Origin: Escherichia coli
GTDB lineage: Bacteria > Pseudomonadota > Gammaproteobacteria > Enterobacterales > Enterobacteriaceae
Assembly (NCBI RefSeq): GCF_030013205.1
Contig: NZ_CP122648.1
Length of the DNA: 64,000 nt
Strand: one strand, 5' to 3'
A program made the position numbers and the translations under genes. Below are positions 2,116 through 7,559 of this stretch, one piece after another (within the stretch, counting starts at the first letter, position 1; every line of letters begins with the position of its first letter). The notes beneath the pieces were generated by a model, which searched no databases, was not told where the DNA came from, and worked only from the letters and a program-made list of their open reading frames with translations.

Positions 2116-3015
2116 CTAAACAGCACCTTTATACTTCAGCCTATCTATAAATAATGAGAATGCCGAGCCAGCATGTCGACGGTGTGGATAGTACAGGTGA
2201 TAACCGGGTAAATCTGGTGTGAATTTATCCAAAACACGTATCAGTTTTTATTCTTTAATAGCCCGCTCAACTTGATCATAAGGTAGATACGCCAATCCAT
2301 GCCCATCAATTGCAGCATCAATGATCAGGTCTATCGTATTCAGTAAAAGCTGACCTTCCATGCGAACACGAACTTCACGTCCACCGCGTATTAATCTCCA
2401 GCGATTTGCTGTACCCGATGTGGGAAGATACAAATTAATTGCCTGATGATCTATTAATTGTGACACTGACGTTGGAGCACTTCGACGAGAAAAATAATCC
2501 GGTGAGCCAACAATAGCCATTGGTATATCTGGCCCGATTCGAATGGCGATCATATCTTTATCCATCTCCCCACCCAGACGGACGCCTGCATCAAAACGTT
2601 CAGAAACGACATCGGTCAAACCATAATCAATGGTAAGCTGGATATCAATTTCAGGATGCGATTTCAGGAATGTGCGCATAGCTGGTAACAATATCGTTTT
2701 TGCTGCATGTTCTACAGTAGTAATACGTATTGTCCCGGATGGGCGGTTCTGCAGATCGCTCAGGGATGTCAGGGCAGAATCTATGTCATGCAACATAGGG
2801 CCAAGAACAGACAAAAGATGCTCGCCCGCTTCAGTGGGTACAACGCTGCGCGTGGTTCGCGTCAGAAGCCGCAATCCCAATCGTTCTTCTATACGGCGCA
2901 CTATCTGGCTTAAAGCTGACTGCGCCATGCTCAGGCGGGCTGCTGCGCGAGTGAAGCTACGCTCCTCTGCAACGACGACAAACGCCATCAGATCAGCGAT
3001 TTCTTCACGCTTCAT
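2116..3015 (-). pseudogene. pgrR: LysR-family regulator PgrR interrupted by an in-frame TAA at 2248-2250; expressed ORF 2248-3015 is 255 codons
   Basis: N-terminal LysR HTH (MKREEIADLMAFVVVAEERSFTRAAARL...). Translating past the TAA in the same frame gives KLIRVLDKFTPDLPGYHLYYPHRRHAGSAFSLFIDRLKYKGAV then TAG at 2116-2118, a typical LysR C-terminus. 255 + 1 + 43 = 299 codons, the length I recall for PgrR. Confidence 0.75.
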
Positions 3016-3039
3016 TCAGTATCTCCATACAATCTATTA

Positions 3040-3053
3040 ATCATTTAAATGAT
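3040..3053. promoter_or_regulatory. 14-bp perfect palindrome ATCATTTAAATGAT in the divergent pgrR/ycjY promoter region; candidate LysR-type (PgrR) operator
   Basis: Palindrome read from sequence. Flanked by a direct repeat GGTCTAATCA (3055-3064 and 3073-3082) and a second palindrome GTGATATCAC (3104-3113). Operator assignment is inference. Confidence 0.35.
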
Positions 3054-3152
3054 AGGTCTAATCATAATTTAGGGTCTAATCAACTTAATGATCAATATCT
3101 ATAGTGATATCACCAACCGTCAAAACGAACCGACAACTCCATGAGGAACGGA

Positions 3153-4073
3153 ATGATGAATAATAAAGTCAGCTTCACTAACAGCAATAATCCAACCATC
3201 TCTTTGTCTGCAGTGATCTATTTCCCTCCAAAATTTGATGAAACCCGTCAGTATCCGGCAATTGTGGTATCTCACCCAGGTGGGGGCGTTAAAGAGCAAA
3301 CGGCTGGAACCTATGCCAAAAAACTGGCGGAAAAGGGATTTGTCACTATTGCTTATGACGCATCTTATCAAGGTGAAAGCGGCGGCGAGCCGCGTCAGTT
3401 AGAAAACCCATACATTCGTACTGAAGACGTCAGTGCCGTGATTGATTACCTGACAACGCTTTCTTATGTCGACAATACCCGAATTGGTGCGATGGGAATT
3501 TGTGCCGGTGCAGGATATACAGCCAATGCTGCAATTCAGGATCGCCGCATCAAGGCCATCGGTACTGTTAGTGCGGTCAATATTGGTTCGATGTTCCGTA
3601 ATGGTTGGGAAAACAATGTGAAATCTATTGATGCCCTACCATACGTTGACGCGGGTTCAAACGCCCGAACCAGCGATATTAGTAGCGGAGAATACGCCAC
3701 TATGCCACTGGCACCAATGAAGGAGTCCGATGCGCCGAACGAAGAACTGCGTCAGGCCTGGGAGTATTACCACACCCCTCGCGCGCAGTATCCAACAGCA
3801 CCGGGTTACGCTACTTTGCGCAGCCTTAACCAGATTATTACCTATGATGCTTACCATATGGCGGAAGTGTACCTGACTCAGCCGATACAGATTGTGGCGG
3901 GCAGCCAGGCAGGGAGCAAATGGATGAGTGACGACCTGTACGATCGAGCATCAAGCCAGGATAAACGCTATCACATTGTTGAAGGCGCAAACCATATGGA
4001 TCTTTATGACGGCAAAGTCTATGTGGCTGAAGCAATTTCAGTATTAGCGCCGTTCTTTGAGGAAACTCTGTAA
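3153..4073 (+). CDS. ycjY: Alpha/beta-hydrolase fold protein (dienelactone-hydrolase-like)
   Basis: ORF 3141-4073; start placed at MMNNKV. Recognised as YcjY by sequence recall. Confidence 0.85.
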   Translation: MMNNKVSFTNSNNPTISLSAVIYFPPKFDETRQYPAIVVSHPGGGVKEQTAGTYAKKLAEKGFVTIAYDASYQGESGGEPRQLENPYIRTEDVSAVIDYLTTLSYVDNTRIGAMGICAGAGYTANAAIQDRRIKAIGTVSAVNIGSMFRNGWENNVKSIDALPYVDAGSNARTSDISSGEYATMPLAPMKESDAPNEELRQAWEYYHTPRAQYPTAPGYATLRSLNQIITYDAYHMAEVYLTQPIQIVAGSQAGSKWMSDDLYDRASSQDKRYHIVEGANHMDLYDGKVYVAEAISVLAPFFEETL

Positions 4074-4147: not shown

Positions 4148-4770
4148 AAAATGTACTGATTCTTGGTGCTGGCGGTCAGATAGCCCGCCATGTGATTAAT
4201 CAACTGGCAGATAAACAAACCATTAAACAAACTTTATTTGCCCGTCAGCCAGCAAAAATCCACAAACCCTATCCCACTAATAGCAAGATTATTATGGGGG
4301 ATGTACTGAATCATGCAGCACTGAAGCAGGCCATGCAGGGACAGGATGTTGTGTATGCCAACCTTACGGGGGAAGATTTAGATATTCAGGCAAATTCAGT
4401 GATCGCTGCGATGAAAGCCGGTGATGTTAAACGTCTGATCTTTGTTCTTTCCCTCGGTATTTATGATGAAGTTCCAGGAAAATTTGGCGAATGGAATAAT
4501 GCAGTTATTGGTGAGCCCCTAAAACCATTCCGCAGGGCTGCGGATGCAATTGAGGCTTCTGGACTGGAATATACAATTCTTCGCCCTGCCTGGCTGACTG
4601 ATGAAGATATTATTGATTATGAGCTTACCTCACGCAATGAACCATTCAAAGGTACGATCGTATCACGTAAGAGTGTCGCTGCATTAATTACAGATATCAT
4701 CGATAAACCTGAGAAACACATTGGTGAGAATATAGGCATCAATCAACCGGTGATGCTGCCAACTTACTGA
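4144..4770 (+). CDS. ymjC: NAD(P)-binding Rossmann-fold oxidoreductase; 3' end altered by IS1 insertion
   Basis: N-terminal MKNVLILGAGGQIARH is a GxGxxG dinucleotide-binding motif. The last 7 codons (PVMLPTY) and the stop are encoded by the IS1 left end; the original 3' end continues at 5526-5559. Confidence 0.6.
   Translation: MKNVLILGAGGQIARHVINQLADKQTIKQTLFARQPAKIHKPYPTNSKIIMGDVLNHAALKQAMQGQDVVYANLTGEDLDIQANSVIAAMKAGDVKRLIFVLSLGIYDEVPGKFGEWNNAVIGEPLKPFRRAADAIEASGLEYTILRPAWLTDEDIIDYELTSRNEPFKGTIVSRKSVAALITDIIDKPEKHIGENIGINQPVMLPTY
4740..4748. repeat. IS1 target-site duplication, left copy (CAATCAACC)
   Basis: Identical 9-mer immediately flanks both IS1 ends. Confidence 0.85.
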
Positions 4771-4803
4771 TTTAGTGTATGATGGTGTTTTTGAGGTGCT
4801 CCA

Positions 4804-5079
4804 GTGGCTTCTGTTTCTATCAGCTGTCCCTCCTGTTCAGCTACTGACGGGGTGGTGCGTAACGGCAAAAGCACCGCCGGACATCAGCGCTATCTCTGCT
4901 CTCACTGCCGTAAAACATGGCAACTACAGTTCACTTACGCCGCCTCTCAGCCCGGTACGCACCAGAAAATCATTGATATGGCCATGAATGGCGTCGGATG
5001 TCGCGCCAGTGCACGCATTATTGGCGTTGGCCTCAACACGATTTTCCGCCACTTAAAAAACTCAGGCCGCAGTCGGTAA
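4804..5079 (+). CDS. insA: IS1 InsA
   Basis: 91-aa ORF with zinc-finger-like CPSCS...CSHC N-terminus; matches recalled InsA. Confidence 0.9.
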
Positions 5080-5501
5080 CCTCGCGCATACAACCGGGCA
5101 GTGATGTGATTGTCTGCGCTGAAATGGACGAACAGTGGGGCTACGTCGGTGCTAAATCACGTCAGCGCTGGCTGTTTTACGCGTATGACAGGATGCGGAG
5201 GACGGTTGTGGCGCACGTCTTCGGTGAACGCACTCTGGCCACACTGGAGCGTCTTCTGAGCCTGCTGTCGGCCTTTGAGGTCGTGGTATGGATGACGGAT
5301 GGCTGGCCGCTGTATGAATCACGCCTGAAGGGAAAGCTGCACGTTATCAGCAAGCGTTATACTCAGCGCATTGAGCGGCATAACCTGAATCTGAGACAAC
5401 ATCTGGCAAGGCTGGGACGGAAGTCACTGTCGTTCTCAAAATCGGTGGAGCTGCATGACAAGGTCATCGGGCATTATCTGAACATAAAACACTATCAGTA
5501 A
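4998..5501 (+). CDS. insB: IS1 InsB (transposase catalytic part, made as an InsAB' fusion by -1 frameshift)
   Basis: 167-aa ORF overlapping insA in the -1 frame; matches recalled InsB. Confidence 0.85.
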
Positions 5502-5516
5502 GTTGGAGTCATTACC

Positions 5517-5525
5517 CAATCAACC
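5517..5525. repeat. IS1 target-site duplication, right copy (CAATCAACC)
   Basis: Identical to 4740-4748. Confidence 0.85.
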
Positions 5526-5724: not shown

Positions 5725-5754
5725 AAATGCAAACAACTTCCATCAAAAAAGTGA
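5725..5754 (+). repeat. 30-bp exact direct repeat, copy B, upstream of mpaA
   Basis: Identical to 1837-1866. Confidence 0.85.
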
Positions 5755-5849
5755 TACAAGATCGATAACATAGCGTTGAAGAAAAGGATTTGATAATCCG
5801 CAAAATTTGCACAACACTGCCTGTAATACTTCCTGAACCAGAGACGATC

Positions 5850-6578: not shown

Positions 6579-7559
<981 letters not shown>

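Follow-up and report, generated by a model that had tools for sequence, protein, structure and literature searches.

The spacer between the divergent pgrR and ycjY genes of Escherichia coli is probably a composite operator and promoter core that belongs to a self-contained LysR-type pgrR/ycjY module. The element is an ordinary LysR-type transcriptional regulator (LTTR) operator and is largely known; binding of PgrR at this locus and its autoregulation have already been published. PgrR carries the domains of an LTTR, an N-terminal HTH_1 (PF00126) and a LysR substrate-binding domain (PF03466), as do all close homologues, and the NCBIfam LTTR models that match it are of the YafC, AaeR and GcvA-like types.

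The DNA analyzed, a stretch of 64 kb referred to here as the window, comes from a swine ETEC-like E. coli chromosome. A 25 kb part is 100% identical to the swine ETEC strain ETEC4079, and 2 kb is 100% identical to strain K_EC180. ETEC4079 alone matches the window base for base, and sister ETEC strains have one additional base over 25 kb. The gene list of the region ends with ycjG, after mpaA (Table 1). At 7087, ycjG has one C fewer than in K-12, K_EC180 and SCU-172, giving a frameshift that may be a true lesion or may stem from faulty assembly. The IS1 copy sits inside the 3′ end of the SDR gene, is bordered by a 9-bp target duplication (CAATCAACC at 4740-4748 and 5517-5525) and sets ycjY and mpaA apart. 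The first in-frame ATG of ycjY is at 3141, and the start annotated by NCBI is used here.

Table 1. Genes and regulatory features of the pgrR-ycjY region, in positions of the window.
Feature	Positions	Strand	Description
mppA	166-1779	minus	
pgrR	2248-3015	minus	Truncated to 255 aa (full length 299 aa); ATG at 3015; from ORFs
pgrR-ycjY divergent intergenic spacer	3016-3152		137 bp, 34% G+C; from ORFs, NCBI annotation and composition
Spacer segment, pgrR side	3016-3035		15-30% identity to window
Conserved regulatory core (phylogenetic footprint)	3036-3105		70 bp; 81-90% identity, 62/70 typical
Site 1, TAATCATTTAAATGAT	3038-3053		Contains ATCATTTAAATGAT (3040-3053); proposed high-affinity PgrR recognition site (RBS)
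pgrR −10, TATCAT	3049-3054	minus	Predicted by promoter scans, start near 3042; conserved in all genera
Direct repeat copy 1, GGTCTAATCA	3055-3064	plus	Bears the third TAATCA half-site
Degenerate middle dyad	3061-3074		ATCATAATTTAGGG here, ATCATGATTTTGGG in K-12; putative ABS-35-type subsite
Direct repeat copy 2, GGTCTAATCA	3073-3082		Holds both −35 hexamers, back to back
pgrR −35, TAGACC	3078-3073	minus	Predicted by promoter scans
ycjY −35, TAATCA	3077-3082	plus	Predicted by promoter scans
Site 2, TAATCAACTTAATGAT	3077-3092		Repeats the site 1 dyad (ATCA-N6-TGAT); candidate PgrR site of the ABS-10 type, close to the promoter
ycjY −10, TATAGT	3100-3105	plus	Predicted by promoter scans, start near 3112
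Palindrome GTGATATCAC	3104-3113		Overlaps predicted ycjY −10/start; lineage-restricted; chance p = 0.16
Spacer segment, ycjY side	3106-3140		46-66% identity to window
ycjY ribosome-binding site and annotated start	3143-3155	plus	GAGGAA at 3143-3148, ATG at 3153; ATGAGGAAC and GATGATGAA conserved
ycjY	3153-4073	plus	Hydrolase gene; NCBI annotation
NAD(P)H-binding SDR gene (ymjC/ymjD-type)	from 4144		Interrupted by IS1
IS1	4749-5516		Complete, 768 bp
mpaA	5849-6578		
Third codon positions of pgrR and ycjY			39-57% identity to window

The original prediction had placed a perfect 14-bp palindrome, a direct repeat and a second palindrome between the two start codons, where the operator of a LysR-type autoregulator is expected. 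Direct reading and a repeat search confirmed the 14-bp palindrome, the two repeat copies, 18 bp apart from start to start, and the second, 10-bp palindrome, which is also perfect; all three lie between the pgrR ATG and ycjY. In mononucleotide shuffles of the spacer, a palindrome of at least 14 bp had p = 0.013 and an exact 10-mer direct repeat p = 0.016, while a palindrome of at least 10 bp appeared in 16% of the shuffled spacers. Over the whole window, five 14-bp palindromes were observed against 4.6 expected, so that such a palindrome is by itself unremarkable. The sequence statistics on their own are only suggestive, and the functional case depends on conservation.

Within the species the elements are uniform. 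The palindrome, the direct repeat and GTGATATCAC are all identical in K-12, and an 81-bp core is present as a single copy in 5222 of the 5426 complete E. coli genomes, at ≥95% identity except for one partial match. Each of these genomes has it in one place, with no core-like sequence elsewhere. The positions that commonly vary, 3066 and 3071, are located in the stretch separating the repeat copies. At these positions the window has the minority allele (A, A) and most genomes have the K-12 allele (G, T); at least 99% identity to the core of the window was found in just 195 of the 5222 genomes. In the proposed middle half-site, A3071 weakens the TG.

A scan of species-representative genomes for PgrR yielded 13 loci, and in 11 of them pgrR and ycjY again form a divergent pair, separated by about 125 bp. 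These 11 come from a second Escherichia, Citrobacter, Kluyvera, Pseudocitrobacter, Shimwellia, Serratia and two MAGs. Ten loci were aligned with the window and K-12 (12 sequences), and Table 1 gives the identities between the window and the nine sequences from other genera. With the neutral rate taken as 0.55, the typical 62 of 70 identities in the core have a binomial p of ~1e-9. The 14-bp palindrome is the invariant heart of the core across genera: it lies within ATTAATCATTTAAATGATA (3036-3054), which is invariant in 11 of the 12 aligned sequences and has one substitution in the remaining one, a MAG. Further along, GGGTCTAATCA (3072-3082) is nearly invariant, CTTAAT (3084-3089) is invariant, and CTATAGT (3099-3105) is invariant in 12 of 12 sequences, while 3094-3098 varies. 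Repeat copy 1 reads AGTCCAATCA outside Escherichia, a match at 8 of 10 positions that retains AATCA.

This conservation, far above neutral, argues against the reading that the palindromes and the repeat arose by chance in an AT-rich spacer, for which the window-wide palindrome count and the frequency of 10-bp palindromes in the shuffles would speak. The related proposal that they form RNA or DNA hairpins, as in an attenuator or terminator, is at odds with their weak folding energies (−1.2 to −1.9 kcal/mol for the palindromes; z-scores −0.96 to +0.36), and a search of the spacer returned no Rfam family match. Together, conservation and folding refute both explanations for the 14-bp palindrome and the repeat, and as an account of the region we consider them extremely improbable. 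Chance is possible for GTGATATCAC only. That palindrome is kept in two of the three clades, Escherichia and a Serratia-type clade, where it is intact or nearly so (GTGATATCAC, GTGTGATCAC, GTGGTATCAC), and is replaced by GTTATCCCAT in the Citrobacter-type clade. Its absence there, its chance-level statistics and its overlap with the predicted ycjY −10 and start leave the second palindrome unsupported as a core operator element.

The perfect 14-bp palindrome is part of site 1, which has T-N10-A dyad symmetry and covers the pgrR −10. A second copy of this dyad, overlooked in the original prediction, is found at site 2, with the dyad proper, ATCAACTTAATGAT, at 3079-3092. Sites 1 and 2 match at 13 of 16 positions (p = 0.0027) and, in other genera, at 14 of 16 (p ~1e-4). 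ATCA-N6-TGAT occurs seven times in the window versus 1.3 expected, and two of the occurrences are in the pgrR-ycjY spacer. The unit that the sites share is a TAATCA(T) half-site. Sites 1 and 2 each hold an inverted pair of it, the left half of site 2 being repeat copy 2, and repeat copy 1 holds a single one. The direct repeat supplies half-sites to the operator and is not a separate operator type; its second copy is also the pair of predicted −35 hexamers. The degenerate middle dyad has its center 21 bp from that of site 1. The overlap between the right half of this dyad and the pgrR −35 could be the sole cause of its conservation.

Other places and other readings of the motif were also considered. 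ATCA-N6-TGAT, with up to one mismatch, was not found upstream of ycjG-tpx or ycjX, the other reported PgrR targets in the window. The other intergenic matches, at 1854 and 5742, were set aside as part of a 30-bp cassette-boundary repeat described below. Fur-box and IHF-like readings of the AATGAT and ATCAA strings, made by eye, were rejected, with about 10 of 19 matches or no conserved TTR; ATCAA of the E. coli spacer is ATCAT in other genera. PgrR homologues at 58% and 65% identity keep a divergent hydrolase partner. Their spacers have different dyads, both perfect, ATATGCATAT (65%, at 2899-3000 of its locus) and TTGTTAATTAACAA (58%), and both proteins have substitutions in the predicted recognition helix. 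Because of these different dyads, the motif is uncheckable in deeper relatives; those at 65%, 58%, 53% and 49% identity were discarded as motif tests for their different dyads or different gene context.

A weight-matrix promoter scan of the E. coli and Citrobacter-type spacers gave one shared candidate per strand. The candidate pgrR promoter, TAGACC-18-TATCAT, was likewise predicted in PMC3946193. On the plus strand, TAATCA-17-TATAGT is the sole candidate common to the two types of spacer and differs from the ycjY promoter given in PMC3946193, ATGATA-19-TCTAAT, whose spacer we count as 20. The invariance of CTATAGT beside variable flanks supports TATAGT as the ycjY −10; this invariant hexamer was also missing from the elements first listed. 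The ROSE supplement has no start-site entry for pgrR or ycjY, and the tunable-TF paper does not mention PgrR. Relative to the predicted ycjY start, the centers of site 1, the middle dyad and site 2 fall at −65.5, −44.5 and −26.5; these positions (−65, −45 and −27) are conditional, because both transcription starts are predicted.

Published data place PgrR at this spacer. Genomic SELEX detected a peak of PgrR (YcjZ) in the ycjY/ycjZ spacer, and the listed regulon comprises ycjG, ycjXF-tyrR and ycjY-ymjDC-mpaA (PMC5934670). DAP-seq enrichment of PgrR at the pgrR promoter is listed as 5632-fold, compared with 4413 for LacI at lacZYA (PMC10505187, Suppl. Data 6). Both methods resolve the spacer and not single bases. 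Upon knock-down of pgrR by CRISPRi in PPTP-seq, the pgrR promoter rose by log2 0.97, 0.69 and 0.57, and negative autoregulation was confirmed with a tunable PgrR strain (PMC10505187). In the same work the ycjY promoter responded weakly (log2 0.60, 0.28 and 0.34, below the authors' threshold) and the ycjX promoter gave no response; the supplement gives the RegulonDB-listed repression of ycjY-ymjDC-mpaA by PgrR. These findings, together with the invariant palindrome, bear out the general claim that the operator of a LysR-type autoregulator is located here. For the ycjY promoter, the supplement also lists a 57.5-fold UlaR DAP-seq peak, derepression when ulaR is knocked down in LB, and H-NS binding evidence (PMC10505187). 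UlaR and H-NS may share the control region with PgrR.

The close packing of promoter and dyad elements allows a different interpretation, in which the conserved block is promoter architecture, that is, two overlapping σ70 promoters with AT-rich upstream elements and perhaps H-NS or UlaR sites. The palindromes and repeats would then be by-products of packing, and PgrR would contact a small or different part of the spacer. Repeat copy 2 indeed coincides exactly with both back-to-back −35 hexamers, the pgrR −10 is formed by the palindrome's right half, and σ70 RNA polymerase holoenzyme alone selects the spacer in SELEX (PMC3946193). The UlaR and H-NS data and the low G+C content of the spacer also fit, and promoter function accounts for 3049-3054, 3073-3082 and 3100-3105. 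However, 3036-3054 is a run of 19 invariant bases, although the hexamers of promoters can accommodate substitutions, and this run includes the left half of the palindrome, which is in no hexamer. A second 16-bp copy of the dyad is unneeded for promoter function, and the DAP-seq enrichment of PgrR is far above that of other factors. We regard this promoter-architecture interpretation as unlikely.

The GTCTAA motifs, which resemble the sigma-E (RpoE) −10 consensus, were counted in favor of a further alternative, in which they are sigma-E −10 elements and the spacer is mainly an envelope-stress promoter region and not a LysR operator. RpoE holoenzyme gave a SELEX-chip peak of 17.2 at ycjY/ycjZ, among the higher values in the rows listed, and the promoters of pgrR and ycjY are described there as known to depend on RpoE, with reference to Shimada 2013 (PMC5493296). 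Against this, a scan of both strands for GGAACTT-(15-17)-TCNAA found no intergenic candidate in E. coli, where the two matches lie at the ycjY start or inside ycjY. In the Citrobacter-type spacer, the scan found one weak intergenic match, GCAATTA-17-TCCAA (4/7), and neither GTCTAA had an AAC core at the appropriate distance. Repeat copy 1 has GTCCAA in other genera. An envelope-stress region in place of an operator is thus quite improbable, while a sigma-E promoter acting together with the operator is compatible with the scan.

We return to the composite operator and promoter core, and propose how it might work. We infer from the sequence the bases contacted by PgrR, both transcription starts and an inducer-driven switch. 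The pgrR and ycjY promoters would be two back-to-back σ70 promoters, and PgrR would read TAATCA(T) half-sites in ATCA-N6-TGAT dyads at three sites. Site 1, the perfect palindrome, would be the high-affinity site; by covering the pgrR −10 and start, it would mediate autorepression, with the ycjY start about 65 bp downstream of it. Site 2 would lie over the ycjY −35 and the promoter spacer, and ycjY would be blocked by a tetramer that spans both sites. The middle site, which starts with repeat copy 1, would be an alternative position for the promoter-proximal dimer. A co-inducer could shift this dimer to the middle site and so free the ycjY −35.

Several features of this proposal follow the known LTTR layout, in which an RBS, an ABS-35 and an ABS-10 span 50-60 bp and a 'sliding dimer' moves between subsites (PMC8407307). 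The conserved stretch from site 1 to site 2 (3036-3096) is 61 bp, giving the span of about 60 bp typical of a generic LTTR operator. As in such an operator, regulator and target are divergently transcribed, weaker related sites cover the target −35 and spacer, and the strong dyad overlaps the regulator's own −10 and would lie about 65 bp upstream of the predicted target start. PgrR likewise acts as a repressor in laboratory conditions without known inducer. The differences are an even 14-bp palindrome and a promoter-proximal dyad that is nearly as good as the RBS. The dyad departs from the canonical T-N11-A LTTR box, in its strict form only, since ATCA-N6-TGAT is an even palindrome and hence T-N10-A; box variants T-N10-A and T-N9-A are reported for many LTTRs (PMC8407307). 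The even length of the dyad, the weak response of the ycjY promoter to pgrR knock-down and the different dyads of deeper homologues weigh against the operator model. So do the 39-bp spacing between the centers of sites 1 and 2, which corresponds to a non-integral number of helical turns, and the part of the conservation that promoter hexamers alone explain, notably at 3072-3082 and 3099-3105. We know of no inducer, DNA bending or footprint shift for PgrR.

The arrangement recalls that of BenM and CatM at benA and catB of Acinetobacter baylyi, where two good dyads of the same sequence flank a degenerate middle site, as the PgrR sites do. In BenM and CatM, occupation of the two good dyads leads to repression, and occupation of site 1 and the middle site to activation; their middle site is also about 21 bp from site 1. 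BenM sites are ATAC-N7-GTAT, with site 3 near −12 and 52 bp from site 1, whereas the third PgrR site is 39 bp from site 1 and near −27. BenM itself is distant from PgrR, matching it in the N-terminal region only (E = 5e-12). The best matches among solved structures were AphB of Vibrio cholerae (3szp/3t1b), CrgA of Neisseria (3hhg) and 3mz1, with E = 1e-29 to 1e-34. These share the full-length LTTR architecture of PgrR, but none of these matches is listed as a complex with DNA, and they are uninformative on the PgrR half-site. Their operators are not known to be related in sequence to that of PgrR.

In the strain analyzed, codon 256 of pgrR is changed from AAA to TAA (plus-strand T to A at 2250), with loss of the last 44 residues; in the identical strain, the annotation makes the gene a pseudogene because of an internal stop. 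At most 7 of 5229 E. coli genomes carry the exact 60-mer around the nonsense site; the mutation is a recent, rare lesion. The C-terminal part of an LTTR contributes to the effector domain, so the truncated PgrR is likely defective, and the module is probably derepressed and decaying. The operator itself is intact and, with its regulator truncated, is probably unoccupied or poorly occupied in this strain.

The module also has defined boundaries. An exact 30-nt direct repeat, AAATGCAAACAACTTCCATCAAAAAAGTGA, at 1837-1866 and 5725-5754 brackets the segment containing pgrR, ycjY, the SDR gene and IS1. When the two outer flanks were joined through one repeat copy and used as a query for the empty site, one-piece matches of 99.1-99.7% were found in 174 of the 5426 complete E. 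coli genomes, with mppA and mpaA adjacent. As the empty-site genomes keep a single repeat copy, the pgrR-ycjY module is a precise presence/absence cassette. K-12 is without the right-hand repeat copy. The boundary repeat contains ATCAAAAAAGTGA(C/T) (1854-1867 and 5742-5755), which fits or nearly fits ATCA-N6-TGAT; its occurrence in the upstream regions of mppA and mpaA may be a coincidence or may represent a weak site for PgrR or another regulator.

Outside E. coli the surroundings differ. Two loci from other genera were examined, and neither mppA nor mpaA was found near their pgrR-ycjY pair. The row of genes in Citrobacter sp. Cu233 comprises ycjY, a second, 40%-identical α/β-hydrolase, an NAD(P)H-binding SDR and an FMN oxidoreductase of the OYE type. 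Among the close homologues of PgrR are some whose annotation places them on Klebsiella plasmids. The different neighbors in other genera call into question peptidoglycan recycling as the native role of the module. It is conceivable, though we put this forward tentatively and with more doubt than confidence, that PgrR-ycjY is a horizontally mobile cassette of LysR regulator, α/β-hydrolase and reductase genes with its own three-site, inducer-responsive operator, which was inserted precisely in an ancestral divergent spacer between mppA and mpaA of E. coli and is not intrinsically devoted to peptidoglycan recycling.

The analysis offers little new biology at the operator itself. It provides a base-level proposal for the PgrR sites, two ATCA-N6-TGAT dyads with a degenerate middle site, and a revised guess at the ycjY promoter with TATAGT as its −10, which would make footprinting and mutagenesis straightforward. 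If the mobile-cassette proposal is true, the reported control of mpaA by PgrR would arise incidentally, from transcripts that start at the inserted ycjY promoter and read through, and the real signal of PgrR would be a small molecule processed by the products of the hydrolase and reductase genes. That the cassette is missing from 174 E. coli genomes and, in other genera, adjoins hydrolase and reductase genes instead of genes for murein peptides cautions against inferring the function of PgrR from its neighbors in E. coli.
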